A stretch of 64,000 bases of DNA, from contig JABVCE010000004.1 of NCBI GenBank assembly GCA_014905635.1, forward strand, positions 868,001 through 932,000, in the 5' to 3' direction. The notes under the pieces are model-generated. The model searched no databases. It was given only the letters and a program-made list of their open reading frames with translations, and had not been told where the DNA came from. Made by a program: the position numbers and the translations under genes. The DNA is from Scenedesmus sp. PABB004. Taxonomy: Eukaryota. Positions 20,998 through 63,930 of the stretch are shown here, one piece after another. Position 1 is the stretch's first letter. Each line of letters opens with the position of its first letter.

Positions 20998-23900
20998 ATG
21001 GTGCGCGGGGCGGGCGCTGCGGGCGGCGCGCAGGCGCTGCGCGGGGGTGGCCGGGCCCTCGCGCCGGAGCGCCCGTCGCCGGCCGGGCCTCACGGCGGGC
21101 GCTGCCGACCGCAGGCCGAGCGGCGCGGGCGCCGGGCAGCGCTCGCGGCGCTGCTGCTGCTCTGCCTGGGCGCGGCGGCCGCGCAGCAGCCCGCGGCGGC
21201 CGCGCAGCAGCCCGCGGCGGCGCCCGGGCCGGCACCCGCGGCGCCGGCGCCGGCCAAGGCGGGCAAGAAGAGCCAGATTGTGAGCATTGCGCCGGAGGCG
21301 GACGTCGCGAACGACGTCGACGACATCGACGCCGCCGGCGGTGCGCGCGGAGGCGGCTGCGCAGCGCCGCGGCGCCGCGGCGGCGCCGCGGCGGCGCCGC
21401 GGCGGGTGGCCGGGCCTCGCGCGGGGCAGCGGCCGCGGCAGCGGCAGCGAGCGACGCGCGCGCACGCGCCGCCGCGCCCGCAGGCGCGTGCAAGGCGTTT
21501 CTGACCTCCTCGGCGTGCCGCGACGTCGAGCCGGGCGAGGGCGCGGTCGCGGAGTGCATCAGCGACACGATCAATGCCGCGGAGGCCGGCGACAACCAGG
21601 ACGCGGGTGCGCCGGGCGCCGCGCGCGCGCGCGGGCGGCGGCACCCGGCGCCGCGCCCGCGGCGCCCGTCCCGGCCGGCCCACCGCCGCGCCGCCGCGGC
21701 GCAGAGAGCGTGCCGGAGGAGTGCCAGGAGGAGGTTTATCAGTTCATGATCACGCGCGGCAAGAACATCAACGCCAACATCCCGCTCGGTGGGGCAGCGC
21801 CGCGCGGCAGCAGCGCCCACGGCACCCGCACCGGCGGCGACGTGCGGCGGCGCCCGCGCCGGCGCGCGGCGGCAGCGCCGCGCTGACGCCGCCGCCGTCG
21901 CGCGGACGCGCTCGCGCGCGCCTCTCCCCCGGCGCCGCGCGCGCGCAGCCAAGGCGTGCAAGGACGACGCGCTGAAGCTGTGCAACAACAGCTGGCTCAT
22001 CGGCGCGCCGCAGGACGGCCGCGTTATCAACTGCCTGCGGTGCGGCCGGCCGCCGCCCCGCGCAGCCAGCGTTCGCGGCGCGCGCCGCGCACACGGCGCG
22101 CCCTGACGCACGCACGCCGCGCCGCACGCGCCGCCGCCGCGCGCAGCGACCGCAAGAGCGAGCTGTCCAAGCCGTGCGCGAAGCAGGTGTTCAAGGTGCA
22201 GAAGGCCATCGCGTCTGACTACCGCGCCGACCCGTCCATGGCGCTCGCGTGCAAGCCCGACGTGGAGCGGCTGTGCGGGACGATCAAGTCCGGCAGCGGG
22301 CGCGTCAACTCGTGCCTGGTGCGCGGCGGCCGGTGGCAGCGCGGCCGCGGCGCGGCGGCCGAGGCCCAGCGCGCCGCCCGCGCCGACCGCGCCGACCGTG
22401 CTGCCCGCCCCGTCGCGCAGCGCCAAAACCGGCCGTCGCTGAGCTGGGAGTGCGCGGAGGAGGTGTTCCGGCAGCAGCTTGAGGCGGACGACGACATCCG
22501 GCTCAACGTCCGGCTCTTCCAAAAGTGCCTCGCCGACAAGAAGCGCTTCTGCGCCGACGTGCAGCCCGGCAACGCGGCCGCGCGCGACTGCCTCGTCGAG
22601 CACCGCAACGACCGCGCCTTCACGCCCGCGTGCAGGCGCGCGCCCGCGCCGCACCGCCCGCCCGCCCGCCCGCCCGCCGCCGCGCCCGCCCGCCCGCCGT
22701 GCTGCGCGGCGCGCCCGCGGTCCCGCCCGCCGCCCTCACCGACTCGCCCCGCCCGCGCCGCGCGCGCCCGCGGTGCTCAGGGATGAGCTGGAGGGCATGA
22801 TCGAGGCGCGCGTGCGTGACTTCCGCATCGACAGCCGCCTGCGCCGCGTGTGCGAGGCACCGATCCTGGAGCTGTGCGGCGGCATGGACAGCTACGAGAG
22901 CGACGAGACCGACATGAACATCTGCCTCCAGGCGCGGCGCGGCGCGGCGCTGTGCGGGGCTGTGCGGCGCTGTGCGGGGCTGCGGTGGCGCCCGTGCAGG
23001 TTGGCGCGGATGCCGACCCGCCCGCACCGCCGCCGCCGCCGCCGGGGCTCTGCGCCGCGCGCGCGCGCCTGCAGGACTCTGTGGACCTCATCCCGCCGGG
23101 GCCGTGCAAGGCGATGGTGTACGAGTACCAGAAACTCGCGGCGCAGGACATCCGCTTCGACGTGCCCCTCGCCGACGCGTGCCACGAGGACCGCAAGACC
23201 TTCTGCGCCAACGTGCCGCCGGTGCGCCGCGGCGGCGGCGGCGGCGCGGCGAGTGCGCTGCAGCGGCGCGGTCGCGGCGCGCGCGGCGCGCGCCCGCCAG
23301 GCCGGGCTGAGCCGCCGCGGCCGCCGGGCGCACGCGCGCGCGCAGGGCTCGGCGCGCGTCATCCGCTGCCTGCACAACAACCGCGAGAAGCTGAGCGGGC
23401 TGTGCCGCGCGACGCTGTTTGACGAGGAGGTGCGGTTCAGCGAGAACATCGACTTCCAGTACCCCATGAAGCAGGCCTGCCTGGGCGAGATCGAGCGCTT
23501 CTGCAAGGACATCCCACACGGCAACGCGCGCGTCATCAGGCGCGCGCCCGCTGGCTGCGCGGCTGCGCGCGGCGGCGCCCGGGGCCCGGCCCAGCGCGCG
23601 CGTGGGCCGCCCGCCCGCCCACCCTTTGCCCGCGTGCGTCCCGCCCGCAGGTGCCTGCAGGAGAACAAGGGCGCCAAGGACTTTGGCCGGCCCTGCCTCA
23701 AGGAGGTGGCCGCGTACGAGCAGGGCAGCGCGCAGGACTACCGCCTCAACTTCAGGCTGCGCAAGGCGTGCGACAAGGACATCAGCAAGCTCTGCAAGGA
23801 CGTGTGCAGCCCCAAGCAGGACCAGGTGAGGGACAAGAAGGTGTGTGCGCCGCGCCCCGGCCGCCGGCCGCCGCCCGGCGGCGGGGGCGGCGGCGCGCCG

Positions 23901-25471
23901 CGCCCGCGCTGAGCCGTGCCCGCCGCCGCCCCGCCGCCGCCGCCGCCCCGCGTCGCCGCGGTGCCTGCCAGCAGGTGTGCGGCGGCACGGTGCTGCGCTG
24001 CCTCACGGAGCACCTCGACGAGCTCGCGTCCGAGGGGTGCCGCAAGGAGGTGCACTACTTTGAGAAGATGGAGGTCTCCAACTACAACAACGACGTCCTG
24101 CTCGCGGTGCAGTGCCGCGGCGACGTCGAGCGCTTCTGCAAGGACGTCGAGCCGGGTGCGGCGCGGCGCGGCGCGCGCGGCGCGCGCGGCGCGCGCGGCG
24201 CACCCGGCGCGCGCGCGCGCGCGTCGGGCGCCGGCGTGCCGGCAGCCGACCCGCGCGCCGCCGCCGCGTGCAGGCGAGGGCCGCGTGCACGCGTGCCTGC
24301 GCGGGCACCGCAAGGAGCTGAGCGACGGCTGCCGGCGCGAGGAGATGATCCTGGAGCAGCAGGAGGCGGAGCACATCGAGCTGCGCCCCAACCTGCTCAA
24401 GGCGTGCTCCGACGAGCGCACGACCTTCTGCGCCAACGTCAAGCCCGGCTCCGCGCGCGTGTTCAGGTGCGCGCGCCGCGCGCGGGCGGGCGCGGCCCCG
24501 GCGCGCACCCGCGCCGCGCCGCGCGCTGGCGCGACGTCCGCGGCGTCCGCCGCCGCCGCCGCGCAGGTGCCTGGCGGAGAAGCTGGCGGACCCCGACTTT
24601 GGCGCCAAGTGCCGCTACGAGGTCGTGGCCAAGCTGCAGCGCCGGCAGGCCAACTGGAAGCTCGACCCGCCGCTGCGCCGCGCGTGCCGCGCCGACGTGG
24701 CCGACATGTGCAAGGCCGAGGACGGCGCGGCGACCGAGACGGGCGAGGTGTATCGCTGCTTGATCCACAACCACGACGACCTCGACCCCGGGTGCAAGCG
24801 CGAGCTCGGCCGCGCGGTGCACATGGCGTTCTTCGTCTGGACCCCGGGCGCCATCCTCACGCGCGAGTGCGACGCCGACGTCGCGGCGCTCTGCCTCAAG
24901 GACCGGCCCAACATGGACCGCACGCCCGGCGCGGTCGGCGGCTGCCTCGCAGACCTGGTGCGCCGCGCGCGGGCGCGCCGCCCTCTTGCCGCCGCCGCCG
25001 CCGCCCGCCCGCGCGCCCACGCCGCCCGTGCGCCCACGCCGCCCGCCCTCTCACGCAGCTCGAGCGCCTCGCCGCGGCGGAGGGGACCAGCCGCAAGATG
25101 GTCAAGGAGCCGGCCGGCAGCCCCGCCGCGCCGCCGGCGCTGGGCGAGGCGTGCCGCGTGCTCGCGGACGTCGCGGAGCCGCCCAACATGAAGCGCGCGT
25201 TTGACACCACGCTCTCGGTCGCGCTGCTGGAGAGCCAGCTGAGCGCGCTGGAGAGCAAGACGGGGCTGCCCCTGCTCGCGCGCGACCGGCGGGGGCGGCG
25301 CGCGGCGTGACGCTCACGGGGTGGACCGCCGTCGCGGGCATGGCCGCGCTCATCGTGCTGCTCGCCGCGGGCGGCACGTTTGCGTGGCGGCAGTACCGCG
25401 GCGTGCACGACGGCACGACCGTGGTGCTCAAGGCGCGGCCGCGCTACAACCGCGTCGCGAGCACCGACTGA
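20998..25471 (+). CDS. GLG1: Golgi apparatus protein 1-like, cysteine-rich GLG1 repeat protein, copy B; apparent 1-nt frameshift near 25293
   Basis: ATG-only first exon, signal peptide (AALAALLLLCLGAAAA), GLG1 repeats collinear with copy A, and a C-terminal TM helix (GWTAVAGMAALIVLLAAGGTFAW). Stop at 25469-25471. Confidence 0.85.
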
Positions 25472-28753: not shown

Positions 28754-31221
28754 TCACTGTGCCGACTCGGGCAGCGAGCGCACCGAGAGGTCGCGCAGCA
28801 GGCTCTTCTTGGCGCCCGCGCCGCGCGGGCTGCCGGGCGCGCCCGCGCCGGCGCCGGCGCCGCCGGCCGCGGGCGTGAGCAGGCTCGCGAGCCCGCCGCC
28901 CGCGCCGCCCGCGCCGCCGGCGCGGCGCGCGGCGAGGGCGTCGAGGTCGTACCGCGCCCGGATGCTCGCGGCGATCACGCTCGGCGCCGGCGCCCCCGGC
29001 GCGGGCGCGGGGAAGTCGGCGCTGAAGTGCAGGCCGCGGCTCTCGCGGCGCTGCAGCGCGCAGCTCACGATGAGCTCCGCGACGGTCACCAGGTTGAGCA
29101 GCTCCACGAGCGGCGTGCTCACGCCGCAGCTGGACGCGAGGGACTTGACCTCAACGTACGCGGCGGCGAGCTCCGCCTGCGCCGCCTGCAGCGCCGCCGT
29201 GCGGCGCACGATGCCCGCGGCCTCCCACATCAGGCGCCGCACCTCGCCGCGCTTCGCGGCGACCCACGCCGCCGCCGCGGCGGGCAGCGGGCGCGGCGCG
29301 CGCGCGCCGCTGAAGTCGGCGGCCGCCGCCGCGGCGCGCAGGTGCGGCGCGCACGCGCGGGCCGCGTACTCGGCGTGCGCGACCGCCGGCCCCGCCGCGC
29401 GGTCGGCAAAGACCAGGCCCTCGAGGAGCGAGTTGGAGGCGAGCCGGTTGGCGCCGTGCAGGCCGCTGCACGAGACCTCGCCGCACGCAAACAGGCCCTG
29501 CACGCTCGTCTCGCCGCGCAGGCCCGCGACGACGCCGCCGCACATGTAGTGCTGCGCCGGCAGCACGGGGATGGGCTCCGCCGCGATGTCGATGCCCGCC
29601 GCGGCGCAGCGCTTGGCGATGTTTGGGAAGTGGGCCAGCACCTCGGAGCGGGGCTTGTGGCTGATGTCGAGCAGCACGTGCGGCTCGCGCCGGCTCTGCA
29701 TCTGGTCGGTGATCGCGCGCGCGACGACGTCGCGCGGCGCCAGCTCCAGGCGGTCGTCGTAGCCCGCCATGAACCGCTCGCCTGGCAGGCGCGGAGTGGG
29801 CGGGGCGGGCGCGGGCGCGAGGGAGGGGGTGAGAAGGGTGCGGGAAGGGCGGGAGGGGGGCGCGCGCGCCTGGCGCTGCCGGCGCGCCGCGCCGCCGCCC
29901 GCGCCGCGCGCGCTGCACGCTGCGGGGCGCGCACCGTCGAGGTTGGTCAGCCGCCCGCCCTCGCCGCGCAGCGCCTCGGTGATGAGGAACGTGCGCTCCG
30001 CGCCCGCGCGGCCGCCGGCCTCGGGCGGCGCGTAGAGCGCGGTCGGGTGGAACTGCACAAACTCCATGTTGGCCATCGCCGCGCCCGCGCGGTAGGCCAT
30101 GGCCATGCCGTCGCCCGTCGCGACGTGCGGGTTGGTCGTGGACGGGTACACCTGGCCTGCGCCGCCGGTCGCGAGCATCGTGGCGAGGCCCAGGAAGCGC
30201 ACGGCCGTGCCGGAGGCCTGGTCGAGCACGTCGGCGCCGAGGCAGTGCGGCGCGCCGCCGACCTCGTCGACGACCAGCTCGGTCGCGAGGTGGTGCTCGT
30301 GGAAGGTGATGCGCGGGTGGCGCCGCGCGGTCGCGAGCAGCGCGCGCTCGATCTCCGCGCCCGTGAGGTCGGCGGCGTGCACGATGCGGCGGTTGGAGTG
30401 CCCGCCCTCGCGCGTGAGGTGCAGGCTGCCGTCGGCGTTGCGCGTGAAGTCGGCGCCGAGCTTGACCAGCTCCAGCACGCGCGCGGGGCCCTCGCGGCAG
30501 ACCACCTCGACCGCGCTGCGCGGCGGGGCGGGACGGCGCGCGCGCGGCGGCGGGCGGGTGAGCGCGGACCGCGGGCGGCAGCGCGGGCGGCGGGCGCCGC
30601 GCGGCTGGCGCCCGCTGACGCTGCCTGCCGCTCCCTGCCGCCGCCCGCCCGCCGCCGCCCGCGTGCCGCCGCGGCGCACTTGCGATCGTTGAGGAAGGCG
30701 CCGGCGACGATCGTGTCCTCCACGTGCGCCTCAACGCTGTCGCTCGCGTCGAGCACCGCGCACACGCCGCCCTGCGCGTACTGGGTGCAGCCCTCGCCCG
30801 CGTAGTCCTTGGTGATCACCGCGACGGAGCCGTACTCCGCGACCTTGAGCGCGTAGGAGAGGCCCGCGATGCCGCTGCCGAGGACGAGGAAGTCAAAGTG
30901 CACGGCGGCGCCGCCGGCGGCGCTGCCGGCGCTGCGGCCGGCGGCGCTGCTGCTGCCGCCGGCGCGCCCGGCGCTGCCGGGGCTGCCCGCCGAGCCGTCG
31001 CGGCGCGGCCGCCGGAGCGAGTCGCCGCCGGCGCGCGCGGCCACAGCGCGGCGCGGCGGGCGCGGGCAGCTACTGCGCCCGGCGCCCGGCGCTGGCGCGG
31101 CGCGGGGCGCGGGGCCGGCCCGGGCGGCGCGTGGCGCGCCGCGGGGGCCCGGGGCTGGCGCGGGGCATGCCCACGCGGCGGCGCGGGGCGCGGCGAGGGT
31201 GGCGCGGGCTGCGTGCACCAT
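28754..31221 (-). CDS. nadB: L-aspartate oxidase with transit-peptide-like N-terminus, 3 exons
   Basis: FDFLVLGSGIAGL, YAQGGV, TREGGHSNRRIVHAADLTG, MEFVQFHPT, ELAPRDVVAR, HYMCGG, GLHGANRLASNSLLEGL and RRESRGLHF. Confidence 0.96.
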
Positions 31222-33162: not shown

Positions 33163-36100
33163 TCACGCGTCGTCGTTGCGCAGGCTGCCCGCCGGCGTGG
33201 GCAGCCGGGTCAGGCTGTCCAGCGGCTTGGACAGCAGCCGCGACAGCGTGCGCTGCGGCGCGCCCGCGCCCGACGCGACGTCGGCCATCGCCGCCGGGCG
33301 GTAGCTCAGGCTCTGCCCCAACCGCGACGACAGGCTCATGCCCAGCCCCCGCGCATTGTCCGGCGGCGGCGCGCCCGCGTAGCGCGGCGGCGCCTCGCCC
33401 GCCGGCGCGCCCGCCGGCGGCAGCGCGTCGTCCGCGAGCGCCGCGTGCAGGCTGCCCGCCGCGGGGATGCGCGCAAACGCGGCGGCCGCGCGGTGGATGC
33501 CCGCCGCGAGCGCGGCGTCGCCGTGCGCCGCGTCGGCGTCGTCGTCCTCGTCGGCGGCGGCAGCAGCGGCGGCGCTGGCCGAGCGCTGCACCGGCAGCAC
33601 TGAGCGGCTGGGGATGAAGCGGAACTCGCTGTCCTCCAGGCCCTGCGCGCGGGCGGGCGGGACGGCGTCAGCCCCGCGGCGGGCGCGCGCCGCGCACGGC
33701 CGCGGCCGCCGGCCGGCCGCGCCGCGGCGCCGTGCAAGCCGCGCGCGCAGCGCCGCGGCCAGCCCCAGCCCGGACCTTGAGGTTTGACATGCCAAACACG
33801 ATGCGGTACATGCCGGCAATGTTGGTGTGGATGTAGCGCAGCCAGCCGCCGTTGCGGATCGTCCACGTCACCGTGTAGTGCCCGCTCCCTGGCGGGCGCG
33901 TGCGCGGCGCGTACGCGCGCGCGCGCACGTGGGCGGCCCGCCGCGCCGCCGTGCCGCGGCCCACGCCGCGCCGCGCCACGCCGCGGCCGCCTGCGCCACG
34001 CGGGCCGCGGCGCCGCGCTGCGCGGCCGTGCGCCCCGCGCGCGCGCGCACCCGCGTCGCCGGCGTCGAGCGCTGCCTCGAGGGCGAGCAGGTTGCGGCTG
34101 TGGAAGAACATGTTGCGGTCGGTCTTGGTGCTGTTTTGGATCTCCCACGCGAGGTGCCCGTACTTGAGCCGCCGCGCCGTCTTGTGCTGCCCGAGCGCCT
34201 CGAGCACGCGCACCGCCGCCCACACCTGCGACCGCGCGCGCGCGCCGCCAGCCGCGTCGGCGCGCCGCGCGCCGCGCGCCGCGCGCGCTCCCGGCAGCAG
34301 CAGCGCCGCGCGCGCGCGCCGCCCGCGTCGACTGCAAGGCGCGCCTTCCAGCTGGTCCAGTACTTGCAGCGCTTGACCGCCGCCTCGCTGGGCCGGTAGT
34401 CCATGGGCAGCGTGAACAGGCCGCCGCCGGGCAGGCGGAAGGGCGGCGGGTTGTCGCGCACAAAGTCGAGCCCCGCGTGGAACGCCTCCGCAAAGCTGAT
34501 GGGGTAGGTCGTCGACGTGCCTGCGCCGCACGCCGCCGCGGCGACGCGCGTGTCGACGGGGGACGGGGCGCGTGGGCGGGCGCGGCGCGGAGAGGCGGCG
34601 CGGGCGCGCGCGCGGGCGCGGGAGGCGGCGGCGCGGGGGCTGCGCAGCGCGCGGCGGCGCGCACCCGCGTGCACGACGAGCGGGTCGCCCGGGCGCGCGT
34701 TGGCGTACTGGTTGACCGCCACGCGCGCGGCCGTCGCGGCGGCGGTCGCGAGGATCGCGCTGCACACGACGTCGCCCGGCACCGCGTCCCACACTGCGAC
34801 GCCGCGGCGGCAGAGGCGGCCGCGGCGGCTCGGGCGCGGGCGCGCCGCCGCGCCGGCGTGCGGGGGCCTGGCCGCCGGGCAGCCCGCGCGCTGCCAGGGC
34901 GTGCCCGCCGGCGCGCCGCACACCGTGCGTGGGCACCATGGCCACGCTCTCGAGCCGGTCAAAGAGCCCCACCGCCATCGCGACGCCCATGCCCACGGGG
35001 CCGGCCAAGTTGCCGCAGTACCCGGGGTAGCTGCGGAGGGAGGGAGGGAGGGAGGCAGGGAGGCAGGGAGGGGCAGCAGGGCGGTGAGCGGGCGGCGAGC
35101 GGGGCGGGGCGGACGCAAAGGCGGGGCGGCCCGCAGGCGAGCGGCGCGCGCGCTCACGGCGCGCCCGCCAGGCCGGTGACGAGCGCGGGGCGCACGATGG
35201 CGATGGGCAGGCCGTGGTCTGCCGCGTAGCTGGCCACGAGCTTCTCGCTCAGGTTCTTGCCCTGCGCCGCGCAGGCGGGCAGGTGAGCGGGCGGGGGCGG
35301 GGCAGGTGAACGGGCGCGCGGCGCGGGCGCCTGCGGGGCGTGCGCGGGCGTCAGGCGGCGGCGGCGGCGCACCATGGTGTAGGTGTTTGGGAAGCCCCAC
35401 ATGTCGAGGTACATCTGACAAGGGGGTGGGGGGGGGGGGGGCGGCGGCAGCGGGCACGCGGCGGACGCGGCGGCAGGGACGGCGGCAGGGGGCGTGGGCG
35501 GGGGCATCAGGGGCGGCCGCGCGCGCGTCGCGCGGGGGCCTCGCGGGCGGCGGCGGCGCGTGGCGCGTGGCGGCGTAGGGCGCGCCCTCCTCGCACCTGC
35601 GCGCGGATGTTGGCGGGCTGGCGCTCCAGGCTCATCAGGTCATCCACGACGTCCGCGTGGCTCACCTCCTGCCGGCGGCGTGCCGCGCGCGGCGGCAGCG
35701 GCGGCGGCGTGAGCTGCGCGGCGGCGCCCCGCCTGCCGCGGGCGCTGGCGCGCCGGCGCGGCGCGGCCCCGCCTGGGCGCCGACGGGCGACGCCTCGCCG
35801 CGCGCCGCGCTGCGCCGCGCGCGCCGTGCCTGCAGGCCGACCGTGAGCGGATAGATGACCTCATCCACGGCCGCGCCGCGCGGGTGGTTCACGTTGACGT
35901 ACGCTGCAGCACGGCGCGCGGGAGCGTGGGAGCGTGAGCGGAAGGGCGCGGGCGGGTGGTGGCGGGTGGTGGGTGAGGGCGGGCGCCCCGGGGGGAGGGC
36001 GGGCGCCGCGGGGGGAGAGGGGGCGCCGCGGGTGCTGCGCACCCGTGGAGACGTGCACGAAGCTGACCAGGCGGGTCATGGTGCGCGCGAGCGCGAGCAG

Positions 36101-36856
36101 GCGGCGCGTGCCGATGTAGTTGCTGCGCAGCGTGTGCTGCACGTCGGCCTCGAGCTCGATGCTCGCCGCGGAGTGCACCACAAACTGCACGCCGCCCTGA
36201 ACCTTGGCCAGGTCGGCCGCGCTCAGGCCCAGGCCGTCGCTGTTCATGTCGCCCTCCAGCAGCTCCACCTGGCGGCGGAGGCGGGCGGCGCGGGCGGCGC
36301 GGCACGCGTCGGCCGCTGCCGCGCGGGCCGGCGCCGGCAGCGCGGGGACCGCCCGCCGGCTCCGCGGCGCGGCGCGGCGCACCTTGGCGAGCAGGCGGGG
36401 GCTGTCGCGCACGAGGTGGAACAGCCCGCTCTGCAGCAGGCGCGCGAGCCGCTCGCGCGCGCTCATGCCGCGCTTGCCGCGGATGAGGACGTAGACCTTG
36501 CCCACGTCCGTCGTGCGCAGCAGGCTCTCGATGAGCAGGCTGCCGATGTAGCCGGAGCCGCCTTTGGGTCGCGCGGCAGCGGCAGCGGCGGCGGCGCGCG
36601 TGCCGGCTCAGCGGCGCCGCTGATCGCGCCGCGGAGCAGCCAACCGCTGGAGTGTGCCGTGGCAGCGCGACACGCGTGCGCGTCGGCCCGGGCGCGCGGC
36701 GCGCTGGCACGGGAGCAAAGTGCCGGGCGCGCGCGCTGCCGCGCCTGTGATCATGACCGTGGCGCCGGCAAACTCGCGCTTGATGCTGTAAGTCGCCGCG
36801 GCCCCGCCGCCGTGCGCGCCAGCCGCGAACGGGCCCTCGTCAGCCGGCTGCGCCAT
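33163..36856 (-). CDS. FAR: Fatty acyl-CoA reductase (male-sterility/NAD_binding_4 family)
   Basis: TG|GSGYIGSLLIESLLR, VYVLIRGKRG, VVHSAASI, FVHVST|AYVN, catalytic PNTYTM|GK and IAIVRPALV. An alternative ATG lies at 36877. Stop at 33163. Confidence 0.92.
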
Positions 36857-44209: not shown

Positions 44210-47200
44210 ATGGCTGGCTCAGACGCCCCGATGAGCCCCAACCTCAAGCCCATCGCCACGCGGCCGCGCGGCTCGGGCGGCGCCGACATGGAGGCGCCGT
44301 CGCCGCCGAGCTCGAGCGGCGTCGTCACGCCGAAGGGCCGCGGCGCGGGCGAGGTGCACAGCGACAGCCCCGGCATGGGCTCCGACTCGTCCAGCCCCTG
44401 GCGCCGCTTCTTCCGCGGCGGCAGCCGCTACCCGGCGAGCGACGTGGACAGCTACGGCAACAGCCCGCGCAACCTCATGGGCTTTAGCCCCAAGGCCACC
44501 AGCAGCGCGAGCGCGAGGTGTGTGCGCGCGCGCGCGCCGCCGGGCGCGCAGCAGCGCCGCAGCAGCGGCGGCGACGGCAGCGGCCGCGCCGGCAGCGGCC
44601 GCGCCGGCAGCAGCGGCCGCGCTGGCTGCGGAGGGCAGCGGCAGCAGCAGCACCGGCGGCGGCGGCGGAAGGGCCCGGCGGCGACATGCGCGCGCGCGCG
44701 CGCGCGCATCGCCGCGCCCGCCCGCGGCTCACCGCCCGCGCCGCCCGCCGCGCGCGCGCAGCCGCGTGAGCACGCCGGTGAAGCGCAAGAACCGCGACCA
44801 CCTCGGCGGCGGCGGCGGCGGCGGCCGCGGCGAGGGCTACGGGGGCGGGCAGATCAACGCTTACCCGCCCGCCGCGGCGGGGCACCCCGCGGCGGTCGCG
44901 GGCATGATGAGCCTCGCGGAGGAGCTGCTGACCAAGAAGGGCCTGTCGCTCAAGAACCTGCAGGTGCGAATGATGATGCGCCGCGCGGCCGCGCGGGCGG
45001 GCGGGCGCGCGGGCGGCGGCGGCGCCGCGCGGCGGGGAGAGGAGGGACGGGCCGCGCCGCGCTGTGCGCGCGCGCGCGCGGCGCCTTGCCGCTCGCCCCG
45101 CCGCTCGCCGCACGGCTCACCCCGCCGCGCGCCCGCCAGGAGGACACGGAGGAGTACGCCGAGACGGGCGAGAAGGCGGCGATCCCGAAGCACAAGCGCC
45201 CGGTGACCAAGCACTGGAACTGGCTCGGCCTCGCGATCTGCCTCTACTACGTCGCCGCGGCGATCTACTACTTTGTCATCCGCGCGACGCGCACGCTCAA
45301 CATGGGATACATGGGGTGAGCGGGACGGCCCGCCCGCGCGCCACGCTGCGCGCGCAAGGGAGCCAGCCGGCGGGCGCCTGCCAGGCGACTGGGGGCCAGC
45401 GGAGGCGTGCCGGGGCGTGTCGGGGCCGCGCCGGTTTGGGGACGGGCGGCGCGTGTGTGCGCGCGCGCCCGGCGCTGACGCCCGCCCGCCCGCCCGCCCG
45501 CTCGCTCCTGCTGTGCCCGCGTGTCGCAGCTACGGTGTGCTGGTGCTGCTGATCGAGATTGTGTCGTCGACGGCGACGTTTGGCTACGCGATCCTGCTGA
45601 TCAAGTACAGCAAAAGCCGGCGAACCAAGGGCCTGCCCATACCCAAGAAGGGCCAGCAGCCCGACCTCGACAACCTCAAGTTTCACGTCCGCGTGCTCAT
45701 CCCCTGCTACAAGGAGAGCATGGAGCTCGTCAAGCTCACCGTGCTCGGCGCGCTCAAGGCGCCGCTGCCCAAGGACACGCTGCGCACGGTGCGGCCTCCT
45801 CGCGCGGCCGGCGCGGCGCGGCGCGGCGGGGGCCGGCGCGCGCGCCGCTGCTGCCAGCAGCCGCCGGCGGCGCGCCGAGCCCGCCGCCCGCCGGTCTGCG
45901 TGCGCGCGCGCAGGTCTACCTGTGCGATGACGGCAAGGACCCGACCAAGGAGGAGATGGTCCGCGAGCTCAACGCGGAGTGGGGCTGCCTCGAGTACGTC
46001 GCGGGCCGCAAGCGCGACCCGTCGGGCGAGACCAACGGCAAGTCCAACAACCTCAACCACTGCCTCAAGAACGTCATCTACAAGGACTACTACCCCATGA
46101 ACGCGAGCGGGCCCAAGATCCCCAAGAGCGAGGTCATGGTCGTCTTTGACGCCGACATGGTCGCCAAGCCCAACTTCTTCACCAAGGCGCGCCCCGCCGC
46201 CGCAGCCCGGGCAGCCGCGCCGCCGCGAGCAGCCGCGGCGCCGCGCCGGCTGCCGCAGCCGCGCCGGCAGCCGCCGCCGCCGCACGCGCAACGCCTCACC
46301 CCGCCCCGCGCCCGCCTGCCCGCCCGCCCGCCTGCCCGCCTGCCCTCCTGTTTGCCCGCAGATCCTGGAGGTCATGGTCGACGACGACGTCGCGCTCTGC
46401 CTCACGCCCCAGGGCTTCAACAACGTCGACGCGCAGAGCGACATCTTCAACAACCTCAACCTCTCCTTCTGGGAGTACATGCTTCCCGGTGCGCACGCCG
46501 CCCGCGTTGCGCGCGCTGCGTGCTGCTTGTCTTGCGCCGCGCGCGCGCCCGCCGACCCCGCGCGCCGCCCGCCGACCCCGCGCGCCGCCCGCCGACCCCG
46601 CGCACCGCCCGCCTCGCGCCTGCTGCCCGCTCCAGGCACCGACGCGCTCGGGTACATCGCGTGCACGGGCACCAACTTCTGCCTGCGCTGCTTCCCGCTC
46701 GCCGACTGCGGGTGGTTCCCGACGTTCACCATTACCGAGGACTACGCGCTGGGCATGATGCTCAAGGCCAAGGGCTACAAGGCCGGCTACCTCAATGAGT
46801 ACCTCGCGATCGGCGAGGCGCCCGAGGAGATCCGCAACATCTTCCGCCAGCGCTCGCGCTGGTGCAAGGGCCAGATGCAGGTGCTGTTCAGCAGCTACTG
46901 CCCCCTGCTCGACACCGGCCTCACGCTCGGCATGCGCCTGCTCTACACGAGCGTCACGTGGTGCTACGTCACAAACACCTTTGCCGTGCCCTGCAGCGTG
47001 CTCGTGCCCTTCATCGCGCTCGTGTTTGGCGTGTACCCGCTCGTGCTCAACCGCGACTTTGCGCTCGCCGCGACGCTCTACTACACCAGCTCCACGCTCG
47101 TCACGATGGTGCGCGCGCCCCGCGGCGCTGCTGGCCCGCGCCCGCGCCCCCGCTGCGCTGCAGAGACCCGCGCGCCGCGCCGCGCCGGCGGGTCGCGCGC

Positions 47201-49994
47201 CGCCTGCCCCGCGCCGACCGCCGCGCCGCGCCCGCGTTGCCCCGCGCAGTACTGCACCAACCGCAAGCACATGAAGCCGCTGTGGTTCTGCATCGTCTCG
47301 TGCCACCTGCTGTGGTTCACGTTTGCGAAGGCGCAGCTCAACGTGCTGTGGAAGAAGATCACCAAGAAGACGGTCGTGTTCAAGTCGACCAAGAAGAAGG
47401 GCGAGGACGACGGCCGCGCGGGCAAGAAGAAGCGCCGCTTCTGCGCGGTGCCCCAGAACGTCGGCGACATGGAGGGCACGCTCGACGCGTGGGTGCTCGT
47501 CGCGAGCTTCAGCATCAGCATGATCACCGCCATCGTGGGCGCGTTTGGCATCATCGACAAGCCCTACACCGCGCAGGGCGACTTCAGGTGGTTCCTCGCG
47601 CTCTCCATCTTCTGGTCGATCTACAACATGATCCCGCCCGCCCTCTTCATCTTCTACTGCTACAACAAGGGCCAGCTCTTCGAGGACTTCTGCTCCTTCT
47701 GCATGACCCTCAGCTTCCTCGTCGGCATCGGCGGCATCGTCTGCACCTGGCTCGTGCCCGGTGCGCGCGCCGCCGGCCGGCCCCCGCGCGCGCCGTGCTG
47801 CGCCGCGCGCTGCGCGCGCGTGCGGCCCCCGCCAGCAGCCAGCCACAGCCTCGGCCGCCGGCGCCGCGCGCCACCCCGCGCTCACCCCGCCCCGCGCGCC
47901 CTGCGCCGCCGCCCGGCAGATGACTACAACCTCGGGCAGGTGCTCAACGTGTCGCTGCAGTTCTTCGAGGCCCAGCGCTCCGGCAAGCTGCCGCGCATCA
48001 GCAACACGCCGTGGCGCGGCAACTCGGGGCTGTGGGACAGCGTGCTGCTGCCCAACGGCAAGAACTACAGCCTGCTCGGCGGCTGGTACGACGACGGCGG
48101 CATGCTCAAGCTCTCCTACACGACCGCGTTCACCGTGTCGATGCTCAGCTGGGCGTACTACGAGTTCAAGGGCGGCTACCGCTCGAGCGGCAACGTCGAC
48201 TTTGGCGCCAACACCATCCGCTGGGGCGCCGACTACCTGATGAAGGTCAGCGTGACCAACATCACCAGCGCCGGCGCGACCATGCAGCCCATCTTTGTCG
48301 CCCAGGTGCGGGGGCAGAGAGGGCGGAGGGAGGGAGGGAGGGAGGGAGGGAGGGAGGGAGGGAGGGAGAAGGAGGGAGGGAGATGGGAGGCGAGAGGCCG
48401 CACGCGCGCTGGGGCGGGGCCGGGGCGGGGCACAGCGCGCACAGCGCCGCGCACAGCGCCGCGCCGCGCGCCGGCGCCGACCCCCTGCTGCCTCGCCCGC
48501 GCCGCCTGCCTGGCCCAGGTCGGCGACATGGCCAAGGACAAGCTCTACTGGGGCTCCCCCGAGCGCTCCACGATCGCGCGCCCCGCGACCTACCTCAGCG
48601 CCGCGCGCCCGGGGACCGACGCGATGGCGATGGCCTCCGCCGCGCTCGCGTCGGCCGCGGTCGCGATCCAGGACGAGTCGCTGCAGGTCGCGGACGTGTA
48701 CCTCCAAAAGGCGATCGTGCTCTACCAGCTCGCGCAGCGCTGGCGCGGCTACTACGCGCGCTACGTCGAGAGCGGCAAGATGTACCCCTCCGTCTCCATG
48801 TACGACGACCTCGCGTACGCGGCGGTGTGGATCTACATCGCGACGGGTGACGAGAACTACCTCAACGACGCGCTCGTCTTCTACGACCAGACCGTGTCGG
48901 CGGAGGGGCACGTCAACCCCAACCCCTACATGTTCAACTACGAGAACGTCGTCCCCGCGCTCGACCTGCTGCTCTACCAGGCCACCGGCGACGCGTTCTA
49001 CAAGAAGAATGTCCAGGCACGCGCGGGGCGGGGGGGGGGGGGGGGGGCGGCGCTGGGCGGGCCGCTGCGGGGCGCTGCGGGCTGGCCGGGCGGTCCAGGG
49101 CGGCCGGGGCCGGGGCTGGCCGGGGCCTGGGGCTGGGGCTCTCCCGCTGCGCGCCGCGCCGCCCGCCCCGCCTGCGCGCCCCCGGGCCAGCGCCTGAACT
49201 AACCCGCCGCCGCCGCCCCGCGCCCTGCGCCCCGCCTCGCGCGCGCGCAGGACTTCGTCAAGGAGTGGATGAACACCAAGTCCAAGACGGGCGACATCTT
49301 TTACACCAACAAGAACCTCGCCAAGGCCTACCCCTACGGCACGCTGCAGCACACCGCCAACGCCGCGTTCTACACCATGGTCGCCGCGAAGAACGTGATG
49401 GACTCCAAGTTCATGCTCTACGCCTGCTGGGCGCGCAACCAGATCGGCTACATGCTCGGCGACGCGGGCCGCTCGTACGTGACCGGCTACGGCGCGGTGC
49501 AGCCGATGAAGACGCCGCACAAGGCCGCGTCGTGCCCGCCCGTGGACGTGACCGACTGCACGTGGGAGAGCGCGTACTACACGACCGACCCCAACTACAA
49601 CCCGCTGCGCGGCGGGCTCGTGGGCGGGCCGGACGACGCCGACGCGTGGGCGGACGACCGCGATATGAACAACCCCGCCAACACCGTGAGCCTGCTCAAC
49701 AGCGCCGGCTTCAGCGCGGCCATGGCGGCGCTCGTCGACCGCGACATCAACATGGTGCGCCGCGCGCACGCACGCAAATCACGCACAGCACAGCACCGCG
49801 CAGCACGGCGCCGCGCGGCGCGCGCGCGCGAGACGGCGGGCGGGCGCTCACGCCCCGCGCGCCCGCCGCGCCGCGTCGCTCCTCGCGCCACGCAGGCCAA
49901 GTGCCAGCAGGGCAACGGCTTCATCCAGACGCTCATGCTCAAGGCACGCGGCCAGCCCGACGCGGCGGGCCAGCGCTGGTGGGAGGGCGTGTGA
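44210..49994 (+). CDS. Cellulose-synthase-like processive GT2 fused to a C-terminal GH9 (endoglucanase-fold) domain; 12 exons, about 1271 aa
   Basis: Exons 44210-44517, 44762-44963, 45140-45315, 45530-45788, 45914-46186, 46362-46488, 46636-47108, 47250-47760, 47920-48305, 48519-49016, 49251-49754 and 49896-49994 join in frame (3816 nt). GT2 motifs: DDG, KSNNLN, DAD, TED, QRSRW. GH9 motifs: FFEAQRSGKLP, LLGGWYD, YDDLAYAAVW, QIGYMLG, SYVTGYG, GGLVGGP. Confidence 0.92.
48325..48367. repeat. (GGGA)n microsatellite in an intron
   Basis: About 10 tetranucleotide units. Confidence 0.85.
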
Positions 49995-53759: not shown

Positions 53760-54137
53760 CACGCCCTGTCCAAGATCAAGCTCGGCGGCGTGCTCGTGGA
53801 GTCGCACGAGCAGCAGGGGGCGAGCGGCAGCGCGCGGCCCGGCCCCTCGCCCGCTGCCGGCAGCCCCGTGCCGGGGGACAGCGCCGCCGCGACCGACGGC
53901 AGCGCGCGGCCGGCCGCCGCTGCGACGCGGCGGCCCAGCAAGGCGCGGCTTCTGCGCAGCGGCAACGTCTTTTCACTGTCGCCACTGAACGTTTTTGGGG
54001 TTTACTGCGGCTTTGACAACTTCTACGGCAGCCGGCTCGAGGTCTGGGCAGAGTCCGAGTGCCTCCTGTTCTGCTGGCCGATGAAGAGCCTGGAGCACAT
54101 GGCGACGTGCTGCAGCCCCTCCATGGCGGTGTGAGTG
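53760..54137 (+). repeat. Direct duplicate (about 378 bp) of 55456-55833, a partial exon of the downstream gene
   Basis: Near-identical at an offset of 1696 bp; I saw about 3 substitutions. Confidence 0.95.
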
Positions 54138-54387: not shown

Positions 54388-56702
54388 ATGATTTACGTCA
54401 CCGCCGGTCCCTGGGGCACCCTGGCGTCACTGTTCTTCTTCATGGCGGCCGTGTTAGGTGGCGACCTCCTGCTCCTGCGCGCGGCTCTCGCGATTGCTTA
54501 CCTGTGGCTGTTTGTGAACGGCGCCACGGGCCTGCCGTCCTGGCCGCACGCCGCGCACCCCGGCGTGATGAGCGTGAGCTGCGGCGTTGGCGGCAGCCTG
54601 GCCCCGCGGCGGCCGCTGCGGCGTCGACTGGCCCGCTCAGCGCGCCGCGCCGCTGCCGCGCCGCTGCCGCTGCCGCTGCCGCCGCCCGCCGCGCAGCTCG
54701 ACATGATGTGCTGGGCGGTTGTGTCGGGCGGGCTGCACGCGTGCGCGGTCGCGCGCATGCTGCTCGACGAGCTGCCCGTGCGCTTTGCGACCGAGGACGA
54801 GCGCCAGCTCGCGCGCTTCCTCAACCGCCGCAGCGGCATGGAGCCGCTCGAGGCCCGGGTGCGCCCGGGCGCCACGCCGCGCGGCGGCGGCCCCGGCGCC
54901 GGCAGCCGCCGCGGCGGGCCGCGCCGCGCTGAGCGCGCCGCGCTGAGCGCGCCGCGTGCAGGAGGTCATCCAGCGCGGCCACTGGGTGCGCGTCGCGGCG
55001 GGCGAGCGCGTGCTCGCGAGCCACGAGGTGCGCGCCGGGCGCCACGGGCCGCGGCCGCGTCGCCGCCGCGGCCGCCGCCGCCGGCCTGGGCGCGGCCGCA
55101 GCACGCGCGCGCACGCACGCGCGACGCCGCGGCGCGCATGCAGATCTACCAGCGCGTGTTCCTGCTGGTTGACGGCATGGTCAGCATGGACAACACAGGC
55201 TGCTGCGGCGACGCCGACGCCTCGCACCACCACTCGTCAGCCGCCGGCTCGCCCGACGCCTCGCACCACCACCACTCGCGGCCGCTCGCCTCGACCGACA
55301 GCACGGGGCGCACGCGGCCGCCGGCGGCCGCGGAGCAGCAGCCTGGCGGCGGCGGCGACAGCGGGGCGCCGGGGTCGCTGCAGGCGCTGGAGCTGCCGGA
55401 GGCCAGCTTCAGCAGCCCGATGTCGTTCACCCTCGTGCGCGCGGTGTCGCTGGAGCACGCCCTGTCCAAGATCAAGCTCGGCGGCGTGCTCGTGGAGTCG
55501 CACGAGCAGCAGGGGGCGAGCGGCAGCGCGCGGCCCGGCCCCTCGCCCGCTGCCGGCAGCCCCGTGCCGGGGGACAGCGCCGCCGCGACCGACGGTAGCG
55601 CGCGGCCGGCCGCCGCTGCGACGCGGCGGCCCAGCAAGGCGCGGCTTCTGCGCAGCGGCAACGTCTTTTCACTGTCGCCACTGAACGTTTTTGGGGTTTA
55701 CTGCGGCTTTGACAACTTCCACGGCAGCCGGCTCGAGGTCTGGGCAGAGTCCGAGTGCCTCCTGTTCTGCTGGCCGATGAAGAGCCTGGAGCACATGGCG
55801 ACGTGCTGCAGCCCCTCCATGGCGGCGTGAGTGGTTCGCGCGGGCGCCGGCGCCGCCATCGTCCCGCGCCGCCTGCGCCGCCGCGGCCCACGCTCACGCT
55901 CGCGCGCTCATGTGCCCGCCCGCCCGCCCGCCCGCCCGCCCGCCCGCCCGCCCGCCCGCCCGCCCGCCCGCCCGCCCGCCCGCCCGCCCGCCCGCCCGCC
56001 GCCCGCCCGCCCGCCCGCCCGCCCGCCCGCCCGCCCGCCGCCCGCCCGCCCGCCCGCCCGCCCGCCCGCCCGCCCGCCCGCCCGTGCTGCCGCCGCCGCA
56101 GCTACTGGCGGTCATTCGTTCTGTACACCGTCGCCTCCGAGTTTGAGCTCAAGGCACACCGAGGCATGAAGCTCTCACGGTGGGCGCCGCGGCACCGTGG
56201 CACAATCACCGCCCGCGCCGCCTGTGCCGCCTGCGCCGCCGACGCCCGCACGCCCCCGGGCCGCCGCCGTGCCGCGCAGGTGCTCCACGGGCGAGTACGA
56301 GCACGCCGGCTGGCTCATGGGCGGCCGGTCGCGGGACTTCACCGACCCGCTCCGAAGCTACGAGGTCCCCGAGCGCCGCAGCCTGGCGCGGCTGTGCCGC
56401 TGGCTGCGCCGCGCCGCGTCCCCCTTCCAGCCGCGCGGCATGCGCCACACGTGCGCCCCGCGCCGGCGCGGCGCGGCCTGCCCCGCTGGCAGTCGCCTCG
56501 CGCCGCCGCGGCCGCCCCCCCCCCCCCCCGCCACCGACGCCGCCGCCCGTGCCGCAGCGCGCTGCCGCTGACCGGTGTGATGGCGCGCACGCGTGCCGTG
56601 ATCAGCGCGGAGGCCAAGGCGCAGGCGGCGCGCAGCCGGGACGTCAGCTTGCACAGCGGCGGCGGCACGGCGGCGGCGGCGGCCCGCGAGGGCATCGCTT
56701 GA
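54388..56702 (+). CDS. Popeye-like membrane protein with a cyclic-nucleotide-binding-like fold
   Basis: Three N-terminal hydrophobic helices (LASLFFFMAAV; DLLLLRAALAIAYLWLFV; MMCWAVVSGGLHAC), then EDERQLARFL, GHWVRVAAGERVL, RVFLLVDGMV and VWAESECLLFCWP. The start is uncertain. Confidence 0.6.
55914..56083. repeat. (CCCG)n microsatellite, about 170 bp, in an intron
   Basis: About 40 units with two short interruptions. Confidence 0.92.
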
Positions 56703-61222: not shown

Positions 61223-63930
61223 ATGCCGCTCATACTGGAGGAGGACTCCCGGGCGATGTCTGGCTTCGACCCCGCCTCCGCGGCGACGCTGTACTGGAAG
61301 GACGTGCCCGTGCTGGTGCGCCAGGCTGACCGCGAGGACCAGACCGAGGCGCTCACCTTCCGCATCCTCTCGGGCGTGACCAAGCAGAACCACAGCCTGC
61401 GGGTGCGGCCGGGCGCGCCGCCGCGGTGTGGCGCCGCGGCGCCGGCGCGCGCGCCGCCGCCGCCGCTGCTCAGCGGCGCGCGGCGCAGGTGCTGCGCATC
61501 CACGCGTCGAGCGAGGCCGACCCCTACTTCCTGCACACGATGGAGGTGACGGAGGACGAGTTCCAGGGCCTCAAGGCGGAGCAGGGCATCCTGGTCGACT
61601 TTGGCAGCTTTCCCGGCAAGATCGTGTCGCTGTTCGAGCGCTGCATCGCCGCCGCCGCGCCCGACGCGCCGCGCTTCGCCGCCGTGCTCGCGGTCGGCGC
61701 GGGCGAGTCGGTGCTGAAGATTGTGGAGACGAACGACTTCAAGCAGCTGCCGCACGTGACGCTCGCGTTCAGGCCGGGCAACGACTTCACCGTCAAGCAG
61801 GCACGCTCGGCGGCAACCAGCGCCCGGCACCGCGGCGGCCGGCGCGGCCGCGGCAGCGCGCCCGGCCCTGCGCGTGCAGCCCGGCAGCGCCCCCTGTGCT
61901 TGCCGCGCGGCCGCGTCCGCGCGGGCGGCCGCAGCGCCAGCCTGGCGCACGCACGTGACTGCGCCGCCCGCCGCGCCGCAGTTCCTGGCCTTCCGCCTGG
62001 GCGAGGTCAAGGACGACTGCGCGAAGCTGCAGGACCAGCTCGCCAACAGCCAGGTCGAGTCGTGCCAGTTCCAGCAGCGCCTCGCCGAGTGCACGGCGCA
62101 GCTGGCCGACCTGCAGGAGCGCCACAGCCGGCAGACGCTGGAGCTGGAGGCGCAGCTGCGCGAGCAGGCCGCAACCGCACAGCAGGACAAGCTGGACGCG
62201 GTCGCAGCCACCCGGGCGCAGCTGGAGCGGTGAGCGCGGGGCGGCGTGCGGCTGCTGTTTGGTTCTGTGTCGCCGGCGGCGGCGCCTCAACACCACCGCG
62301 CGCCGCGCGCCCGCAGGGAGCTGGACGAGGCGGCGCGGCGGCACGCCGCGCAGGCGGAGCTGCTCAACGCCCGCATCGCTGAGCTGGACGGCGAGGGCCG
62401 CAAGCTGCGGGACCAGAAGTACGCGCTGGACACGCAGGTGCGCCGCGCCGGCATTGGGCGGCGCCCACGGGCCGCTGCGGGGCCGCAGGTGCAGGCCGGC
62501 CGCGCCGCGCCCGGTCGCCCGACCGCCCGGCCGCGCGCGACGCTCCGCAGGTGTCAGAGCTCAGCCACAAGCTCGGCAGTGCGGAGGGCGCGGCGCGCTC
62601 GCTGGAGCAGGAGGTGGGCCAGCTGCGCGTTCAGCACAAGGCGGTGGCGGCCGACAAGCACGGCCTCGAGCTGGCGCTGGCGGACACCAGGGCGCAGCTC
62701 GCGGCGGCGCAGGAGAAGGTGCGCGGCGAGCCAGGGTGGCGCGCGCGCGCGCGCGCCGGCGGGCCCTGCGTTCGAGCCTGGCGCTGCGAGCCAGCCGGCC
62801 TGCCAGGCGCGCCGTGCCACGCCGACCATCCGCCGCCCGGTCCGCCCGCCCGCCCCCGCCGCGCCGCAGTGCTCGTCGCAGGGCCAGCTCATCGCGCAGC
62901 AGCAGGCGCGCCTGGGCGACCTCGAGGGCGCCGCACGGCAGTGGGAGGAGCGCTGCGCCGACCTGCGCGACCTCGCGGCGGGGCACGAGGCGCGCTGCAG
63001 GGAGGCGGCGGGCGAGGTGCTCAAGGGCAACGAGGCGATCGACAAGCTGCAGGTGCGCCGCTGGCGCGTGCGCGCGCGAGCGCGCGCCGGGGCTCGGCCG
63101 GGCCGCGCGGCGCCCGGCTGCGCCGCGCCGGGTCGGTAAGCGCGTGCGCGCCGACCGCGCGCCTTGGCACCGCCGCCGGGCCTGCGCAGACCGACCTGCG
63201 GCTGCTGAAGGAGAAGTCCAAGCGCAAGCAGGCCATCCTGGTGCGCCAGGAGGAGGAGATCGCGGGCCGCGAGGCCCAGCTCGCGGCGGCGCAGCGCGAG
63301 CTCGCGGCGGCGGGCCACGCGCGCGAGGGCCTCGCCGCCGAGGCCGGCGCGCTCAAGGCGGACAACGCGGAGCTGCGCGCCAAGCTGGAGGAGAGCCGGC
63401 AGCAGCTGCAGAGCAACGAGCAGATGATCCGCTGGCTAAACCAGCAGGTGCGGCGCCCGCGGCGGCGCGCGGCGTGCGGGCGGGCGGGCGGGTGCGCGAC
63501 GCCGGCCGCTGCCGGCGCCGCCTGCGCGACGCCGAGCCCGCGCCGCTCGGCGCCGCCGCCGGCGGCCGCGCAGGTCACGGACGCGCAGCTGCAGGTCAGC
63601 GCGGTGCCGGGCTCGCGCTTCAAGTTCCGCCCCTCCGCGGCGCCCGCCGCCGGGCTGGGCGCCGCCACGCCCGGGCTCACCACGTCGTGGCCGCTCGCGG
63701 GCGCCGTCACGCCCGGCCTCGCGGGCGGGCCCGGCACCGCCGCCAAGCTCGGCGGCGCCAAGGCCGCGCACTCCACGGCGCCGTTTGCCGCGTTCAACGC
63801 CGGCAAGTTCTCGCCGCAGACGGTCTCGCCGCGGCACGGCGACTACGCGCTGCCCACGCCGCGCCAGGACTGCGCGGCGCCGCCGCCGGCGCCGGCCGCG
63901 AGCGTCGCGACGGGCGTGGTGCGGCGGTGA
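61223..63930 (+). CDS. SAS6: Centriolar cartwheel protein SAS-6 (BLD12)
   Basis: Head domain LYWKDVPVLVRQADRED...LKAEQGILVDFGSFPGKI...IVETNDFKQLPHVTLAFRPGN, closely resembling Chlamydomonas SAS-6 as I recall it, followed by a coiled coil with NEQMIRWLNQQ. Confidence 0.95.

Follow-up and report, generated by a model that had tools for sequence, protein, structure and literature searches.

The sequence considered here, which we call the window, is a 64,000-nucleotide stretch of the Scenedesmus sp. PABB004 genome (GenBank assembly GCA_014905635.1, contig JABVCE010000004.1, positions 868,001 to 932,000, forward strand), and all coordinates below are counted from its first base. Our subject is a single gene within it, whose product joins a cellulose-synthase-like glycosyltransferase of family GT2 to a C-terminal glycoside hydrolase family 9 (GH9) domain in which both the catalytic base and the catalytic acid of the family are replaced by other residues. 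A first-pass annotation of the window had described the GH9 part, at 47920–49994, as a pseudo-enzyme that binds, guides or organises nascent glucan.

The gene and its product

The interval 47920–49994 corresponds exactly to exons 9–12 of a 12-exon gene and ends at its stop codon (Table 1); introns at 48306–48518, 49017–49250 and 49755–49895 split it, so that it is not a single open reading frame (ORF). The gene was modelled on P0001, an orthologous 1265-amino-acid ORF from a transcript assembly, which is 94% identical to the window protein in each compared domain and tiles the locus by tblastn from the ATG at 44210 to the TGA at 49992–49994; splice sites were picked among GT/GC...AG candidates by best fit to it. 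The assembled coding sequence has no internal stop, and its introns, all of which end in CAG, are GT-AG in nine cases and GC-AG in 2 of 11. A GT donor for exon 10 at 49011 was rejected in favor of the GC donor at 49017 (the ortholog has two extra residues here, and a loose RNA contig end at 49247 reads the end of exon 10), as was an additional exon beyond a possible GC donor near 49943, P0001 having the same ...WWEGV end. A reading of the locus as a bacterial ORF was likewise rejected; it is a spliced eukaryotic gene, and its source is a Sphaeropleales-type green alga.

RNA contigs of three runs were placed on the window at ≥90% likeness; many are 90–99% alike and so come partly from relatives. 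They cover the exons and skip the introns, with zero depth in intron bins 47084–47195, 48316–48427 and 49100–49211 (two of these three bins are covered by a DNA run) and near-zero depth (0.14–0.39) in bin 47756–47867. They also carry the joints 47759>47919 and 48302>48516 (GT..AG), and loose contig ends at 49247, 49755 and 49895 read into neighboring exons; 48428–48651 is left almost uncovered. Because the contigs cover exons, spare introns and carry joints, the locus is a genuine gene whose splicing follows the model, and it is expressed in very close relatives at least.

The G+C content of the whole window is about 78–80%. Around 44–50 kb, stretches of 60–75% alternate with stretches of 81–90%, and recognizable protein in stop-to-stop frames is confined to the lower ones; these are the ranges of the exons and introns, respectively, and G+C at third codon positions of the coding sequence is 97%. 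Another effect of the high G+C content is that both strands have long open frames that are spurious, among them an antisense ORF of 1157 amino acids at 46296–49769. Intron 9 (48306–48518) contains a (GGGA)n-like purine tract at about 48313–48384, which reads in frame as a GREGGREGG... peptide and was skipped as a repeat in read placement.

Table 1. Coordinates of the GT2-GH9 gene and of its sequence features
Feature	Position in window	Strand	Content or basis
Whole gene	44210–49994	+	12 exons, 1271 codons + stop; GT2 synthase, three C-terminal transmembrane (TM) helices, GH9-like domain, conserved tail
Exons 1–6	44210–44517, 44762–44963, 45140–45315, 45530–45788, 45914–46186, 46362–46488	+	tblastn with P0001
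Exons 7–12	46636–47108, 47250–47760, 47920–48305, 48519–49016, 49251–49754, 49896–49994	+	tblastn with P0001
GT2 motifs, all intact	DDG 45926–45934, DAD 46148–46156, LTPQ 46401–46412, TED 46734–46742, QRSRW 46848–46862	+	Sequence
FKSTKK, FxVTxK-like	47379–47396	+	Sequence
Three hydrophobic helices after gating loop	47481–47555, 47583–47663, 47688–47756	+	Kyte-Doolittle peaks, residues 690–708, 722–740, 749–771
Exon 9, GH9 exon 1	47920–48305	+	DDGG 48090–48101; sequons NVS 47946–47954, NYS 48063–48071, NIT 48258–48266
Exon 10, GH9 exon 2	48519–49016	+	Lys 48540–48542 in place of DH clamp His; GC donor at end
Exon 11, GH9 exon 3	49251–49754	+	Tyr 49335–49337 for −2 Trp; Gln 49347–49349 for WGxLR Arg
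Exon 11, GH9 exon 3 (continued)	49251–49754	+	TPHK 49512–49523 for HHR; Asn 49671–49673 for clamp Tyr
Exon 11, GH9 exon 3 (continued)	49251–49754	+	Thr 49683–49685 for acid Glu; LLNSA 49692–49706 for xDYNA
Exon 12, last	49896–49994	+	Cys-containing conserved tail AKCQQGNGF...WWEGV; TGA 49992–49994

The synthase part has the D, DxD, TED and QxxRW motifs of the processive GT2 (BcsA/CesA) superfamily, as DDG, DAD, TED and QRSRW, and Pfam GT2 families exceed their cut-offs upstream of GH9 in P0001. Its TED and QxxRW motifs align to those of the BcsA structures 5ej1 and 4hg6, and the exon that carries them matches 12 solved chains, all of them cellulose synthases or CslF6, with BcsA best (E = 1e-11). 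Further downstream lies FKSTKK, which we take to resemble the FxVTxK gating-loop motif so named in the BcsA structure literature. We call the protein cellulose-synthase-like because the top NCBIfam model, CelA TIGR03030, reaches only 117 bits where its cut-off is 699. To judge by these motifs and matches, the GT2 part is a BcsA-like processive synthase, whose product is probably cellulose or another β-1,4-glucan. The Pfam hits of P0001, P0005, P0016 and P0301 (E ≤ 0.001) include no PilZ family, the C-terminal c-di-GMP control domain of BcsA proper; the position after the last TM helix, where BcsA proper has PilZ, is taken by the GH9 domain.

That domain, at about residues 778–1239, is identified by Pfam PF00759 in exons 9–11 (E = 4.4e-56 and 3.7e-25 for the window exons; 300 bits in P0001, over profile positions 3–425 of 444 and against a cut-off of 27.7) and thus belongs to GH9; by HMMER its nearest solved relative is the termite endoglucanase 1ks8, and a search of protein clusters gave generic GH9 clusters only. 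The short tail behind it, encoded by exon 12, is 81–94% identical to those of P0001, P0004 and P0005. If the gating loop is cytosolic, as homology to BcsA implies, then the GH9 domain, separated from it by three helices and hence by an odd number of membrane crossings, would come to lie outside the cell. Such a location fits the retention of the three N-x-S/T sequons in 9, 10 and 8 of 10 orthologs, and the nature of the best solved relatives, which are secreted animal GH9 enzymes. It fits as well the Cys pair of canonical GH9 domains (present in 89% and 86% of the 64 described below), which is retained in 13/13 members of the window's clade.

Loss of catalytic and cleft residues

Canonical inverting hydrolysis by GH9 enzymes requires a pair of Asp residues that activate water and a Glu that donates a proton. 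In 1ks8, counted along the printed chain, these residues are D54, D57 and E412. As excerpted, PMC6032398 assigns the base to the C-terminal Asp of the DAGD motif and an essential supporting role to the N-terminal one, and mentions base replacements only for a Medicago enzyme and some sea-squirt isoenzymes. For the cleft of CelR, the description in PMC10149213 gives D71, D74 and E439 as catalytic, H141 and Y435 as a clamp at subsite +1, and W330 as stacking at subsite −2.

We paired the residues of the window with those of 1ks8 through HMMER alignments, the clamp and −2 positions being mapped by motif and spacing rather than by structure. In the first exon of the domain (1ks8 GGYFDAGDFVKF, window GGWYDDGGMLKL) the base Asp57 has become Gly (Gly837 of the window protein), at 48099–48101, and the Ala of DAGD has become Asp; DH reads DK in the second (1ks8 GDADHAFWGRPE, window GDMAKDKLYWGSPE). 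In the third, HHR is replaced by PHK (1ks8 PTRPHHRSSSCPP, window PMKTPHKAASCPP), and Glu412, the acid Glu of NEV/TEP segments, by the Thr of NTVSLLNSA, Thr1216 (1ks8 DYVHNEVATDYNAGF, window NNPANTVSLLNSAGF). The three motif changes that the first-pass annotation had listed, DDGG, TPHK and this Thr, are thus present in frame at exactly the positions it gave, and they fall opposite D57, HHR and E412 of 1ks8. Its list was an understatement, since substitutions also affect the +1 clamp His (now Lys), its partner Tyr (now Asn) and the −2 Trp (now Tyr).

To set these changes in the context of the family, 85 GH9 domains were aligned: the window's own, those of related proteins, and representatives picked out of 1.8 billion searched proteins. 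DAGD and the Glu are present together in 64 of the 85, which form the canonical set. Among the 88 columns that are ≥85% conserved in this set, 71 are kept in the window's 13-member GH9 clade, 10 are changed and at 7 its members differ, and the changed columns are mostly active-site motifs. Neither the base Asp nor the acid Glu (each 64/64 in the canonical set) is kept in any of the 13, a uniform loss beyond what chance would give; none of the 13 has kept the clamp His (63/64), the clamp Tyr (47/64) or the −2 Trp (54/64) either, and the loss of these last three from all 13 members indicates that the cleft is remodelled well past the catalytic residues. Four further positions are largely retained: the support Asp in 11/13 (canonical 64/64), the Trp of DHxxW in 12/13 (64/64), the Tyr of YxS in 13/13 (62/64) and the second His of HHR in 12/13 (62/64). 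The earlier statement that the fold motifs are intact holds, on the 71 retained columns and the PF00759 score, at the level of sequence and no further.

The replacements themselves are conserved in the clade, with Gly at the base position in 13/13, the new Asp in 12/13, Pro (P1160 of the window protein) in 11/13 and Gln (Q1104) for the Arg of WGxLR in 10/13, and they are shared by the Monoraphidium, Raphidocelis and Tetradesmus orthologs. The acid position varies among T, I, S and R, so that no catalytic replacement is evident there. With base and acid gone and nothing acidic aligned at the acid position, hydrolysis has very probably been lost from the window's GH9 domain, and there is strong support for regarding it as a pseudo-enzyme with respect to canonical GH9 hydrolysis: base, acid, the first His of HHR, the His of DH and further cleft residues are all replaced, orthologs share the changes, and constraint on the domain is about that on the GT2 core (see below).

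Cleavage or transfer of glycosidic bonds by other residues, for instance with DDGG's new Asp in the role of base and a proton donated by some distant acid, or by a transglycosylase mechanism, would leave the domain an enzyme of a non-canonical kind. The near-constancy of that new Asp and of the support Asp could be taken in its favor, as could P0301 and P0302 of the same clade, which retain DAGD/DSGD and DH and have Arg for the acid Glu and PHR for HHR. The variable acid position, at which no alternative acid aligns, and the loss of both clamp residues and of the −2 Trp speak against catalysis of this kind, and we consider it improbable.

Constraint, family distribution and genomic surroundings

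In two comparisons with relatives, the GH9 domain of the window protein is more conserved than its GT2 core: identity to the Tetradesmus protein P0005 is 76% in GH9 and 62% in the GT2 core, and to P0004 it is 75% and 70%, respectively. GH9 diverges 0.70–1.88 times as much as GT2 across nine pairs of the window's clade, against 0.80–2.71 times across seven pairs of a clade with intact GH9. By this measure, which is taken at the protein rather than the codon level, the dead GH9 domain is no less constrained than a live one, and its constraint is comparable to that on the GT2 core; such values indicate that it is kept under purifying selection, and selection on a domain without hydrolysis argues for a non-hydrolytic job.

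Close GT2 paralogs without GH9 also occur (P0303 and P0304 of Tetradesmus obliquus, P0305 of Scenedesmus sp. PABB004, and P0327 and P0336 of Coccomyxa). Provided that none of these gene models is incomplete, one synthase type would exist with intact, with dead and with no GH9. Their existence would suit a vestigial domain, kept because the synthase needs it in order to fold, to be exported or to be stable, and otherwise without activity of its own. Within the Sphaeropleales, however, constraint on the domain is at least as strong as on the GT2 core, and the replacements at the former active site are conserved; we regard a mere vestige as very improbable indeed.

A first search gave full-length GT2-GH9 proteins from Monoraphidium neglectum, Raphidocelis subcapitata, Tetradesmus obliquus and further assemblies, all with the window's substitutions, and also P0016, a GT2-GH9 fusion with intact motifs. 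Further searches, with the GH9 part of P0016 and the GT2 part of P0001 as queries, showed that the fusion spans the core Chlorophyta: it occurs in Ulvophyceae (Bryopsis), in Trebouxiophyceae (Coccomyxa, Trebouxia, Elliptochloris, Myrmecia, Apatococcus, Symbiochloris and Botryococcus) and in Chlorophyceae (Haematococcus, Chlamydomonas eustigma, Chlamydomonas sp. UWO241 and Monoraphidium minutum). Both domains are present in 71 of 371 pooled proteins (370 plus the window's own), a sample shaped by the queries used. Catalytic states were read from hmmalign columns, possibly misplaced in the most divergent members, and could be scored at both positions in 55 of the 71 fusions, 16 being unscorable: base and acid are both present in 10, the base without the acid in 7, and neither of them in 38. 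The acid Glu is thus absent from 45 of the 55, and what had been treated as a singular case is the majority state of chlorophyte GT2-GH9 fusions.

Catalytic states were mapped on a tree of the GT2 domains (87 rows), a tree of the GH9 domains having been set aside for this purpose with its deep branches poorly resolved; both trees are quick ones in which deep branches are unresolved. On the GT2 tree the window falls within a clade of 13 rows (SH-aLRT 97), no member of which has the acid, and intact GH9 domains are limited to a 9-row clade and the pair P0081/P0088. At least three changes of the acid state and at least six of the base are needed on this tree, and the dead state needs at least two changes on the GH9 tree. 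P0301 and P0302, which retain DAGD/DSGD and DH and yet have no acid, suggest that in the window's clade the acid was lost before the base, and as intermediates they could help to establish the sequence in which the domain degenerated.

Elsewhere in the window, two multi-exon genes with Cys_rich_FGFR/GLG1-type repeats (PF00839) lie on opposite strands at 11357–12661 (−) and 22142–24840 (+); some of their exon peptides are nearly identical, for example 11913–12089 (−) and 23358–23549 (+), and they look like an inverted pair of paralogs about 10 kb apart. Exons at 17791–17985 (−), 18646–18825 (−), 30676–30900 (−), 36047–36271 (−) and 61486–61815 (+) belong to unrelated genes. The neighboring genes encode a ZNF598-like RING/C2H2 protein, an FAD_binding_2 oxidoreductase, a NAD_binding_4 (fatty acyl reductase-like) protein and a protein with a SAS-6 N-terminal domain, none with an obvious link to wall synthesis. 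A 300-nucleotide direct repeat, 99% identical, occupies 53760–54059 and 55456–55755 (1696 nucleotides from start to start), and a long (CCCG)n-type tract follows its second copy at about 55917–56090.

Possible role of the GH9 domain and comparison with known systems

In the explanation that we favor, the synthase chain would cross the membrane three more times past the cytosolic gating loop and so leave the GH9 fold outside, beside the polymer exit. Lacking the base, the acid, the +1 His/Tyr clamp and the −2 Trp platform, the domain would not carry out canonical inverting hydrolysis; it would be a membrane-tethered, glycosylated module that receives or holds the emerging chain, by way of its remodelled cleft or its surface, and passes it to the wall or to neighboring chains. 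Its role would then be comparable to those of the non-catalytic BcsB of bacterial BcsA and of the dead GH6 domain of tunicate CesA. The constraint on the domain, its tether at the exit side of the synthase and the conserved re-use of a former cleft are our reasons for this reading, and we judge the chances of a non-hydrolytic exit-side module in contact with the emerging polymer to be about evenly balanced.

Several points weigh against it. The sequence, in which the canonical chain-holding residues are lost, does not support β-1,4-glucan binding of the usual cleft type; this weakens, in its simplest form, the proposal of a domain for binding, guiding or organising nascent glucan, which remains an inference, and since clamp and platform are both gone any glucan binding would have to use a new mode. 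The topology was read from hydropathy and BcsA homology rather than from a dedicated predictor, and as to the product the low CelA score counts on the same side. The synthase type can apparently work without GH9, unless the GT2-only gene models are truncated. Other carboxylates may reach the catalytic positions, candidates being the new Asp of DDGG (12/13) and an Asp of DDRD. The breadth of the dead state, finally, is subject to the limits of the census given above.

The same loss of canonical sugar-contact residues, with surface and core conserved and a conserved Cys-containing tail after the domain, would also suit a scaffold, in which a dead GH9 barrel serves protein-protein contacts, arranging synthases into linear terminal complexes or docking wall-building proteins, and does not touch the polymer. 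Against a scaffold, the concentrated and conserved changes sit in the former active-site motifs and point to re-use of the cleft, not of the outer surface alone; we think it rather unlikely. The cleft might, on the other hand, have acquired a new specificity, for mannan or glucomannan, for a glycoprotein or an algaenan precursor, or for existing wall to which the synthase would be anchored. The replacement residues are conserved and non-random, and the product of the GT2 part is no more than probably a β-1,4-glucan, both of which would allow a changed ligand. Similar degeneration with different replacement residues in several clades argues against any one specific new ligand; we hold it to be a little less probable than the scaffold.

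The exit-side module may have a wider counterpart. Tentatively, and with more doubt than for the window itself, we propose that tethered dead glycosidases are a recurrent eukaryotic solution in the absence of BcsB: a cellulase fold at the channel exit, brought there by an extra helix, which does not cut (in most chlorophyte fusions and, convergently, in tunicate CesA-GH6) and which would receive nascent β-glucan and set chain release or assembly, with intact and dead algal paralogs as "cut" and "hold" variants. Why a cellulase (KORRIGAN, BcsZ) should be required for making cellulose has long been a puzzle, and green algae offer many natural variants of a single synthase type with GH9, among which a few clades have intact catalytic residues and most have lost them. 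Should the dead domains still be of use, which their conservation indicates, a cellulase fold contributes more than hydrolysis to polymer production, and transformable Sphaeropleales or Chlamydomonadales would allow "holding" to be separated from "cutting". Labels such as "cellulase" or "six-hairpin glycosidase" that databases give to these proteins are probably misleading, as are predictions that cellulose is degraded where they are built on such labels.

The GT2-GH9 fusion was first noted in 2012, in the genome paper of Coccomyxa subellipsoidea C-169 (PMC3446292), which notes the analogy to tunicate CesA, treats the domain as a cellulase and predicts cellulose metabolism from it. The Coccomyxa-type proteins, with a GT2 cellulose-synthase-like domain, no ortholog of land-plant CesA, and a Pfam GH9 domain, are of the same family and architecture as ours, and the window protein clusters with fusions of Coccomyxa, Trebouxia, Elliptochloris, Myrmecia, Haematococcus and Chlamydomonas species. 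The difference from the cellulase interpretation lies in the catalytic acid, missing from the window's domain and from most scorable relatives. A literature search within one paper library found no report of lost GH9 catalytic residues in algal GT2-GH9 fusions and turned up only the 2012 note of the fusion; the fusion was already known, and the dead active site is, within that search, the new element. The intact-motif chlorophyte fusions (P0016, P0048, P0050, P0051, P0064, P0065, P0067, P0068 of Bryopsis sp. KO-2023, P0081 and P0088) are homologous over the full length (GT2, TM helices and GH9), but they keep DAGD, [DE]H, HH[RQM] or HQR and the acid Glu, and lie in other clades of the GT2 tree.

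Among solved structures, bacterial BcsA (4hg6, 4p00 and 5ej1) is closest to the algal GT2 part. Its partner BcsB is a non-catalytic extracytoplasmic protein at the polymer exit with one TM helix, and BcsZ is an active GH8 enzyme. The algal protein differs from this system in that BcsB is separate and of unrelated fold, BcsZ is active, and no PilZ is found by Pfam in the algal proteins scanned. In plants, a KORRIGAN-type GH9 endoglucanase works with the cellulose synthase complex. This role is also mentioned in PMC10334666. KORRIGAN resembles the algal domain in being a membrane-anchored GH9 outside the cell that acts with cellulose synthase; it differs in being a separate polypeptide, and our stand-in for it, P0040 (Lactuca endoglucanase 25), has intact motifs (YYDAGD, HHR and TEP).

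Tunicate CesA, the product of an animal gene attributed to horizontal transfer, carries a GH6 rather than a GH9 domain, and the two are unrelated folds; it was not among the 85 hits of our GT2 search, which was word-seeded and so does not exclude similarity. The first-pass annotation had drawn a parallel to this degenerate GH6, and the parallel is apt. The account in PMC10334666 documents a GH6 domain without the catalytic Asp, thought to be functionless, on a synthase that is genetically required for cellulose production. The window protein, by Pfam a member of GH9 and not of GH6, has the same arrangement of a processive GT2 followed by a C-terminal cellulase-family domain minus its catalytic carboxylate, a domain regarded in the tunicate protein as non-hydrolytic.

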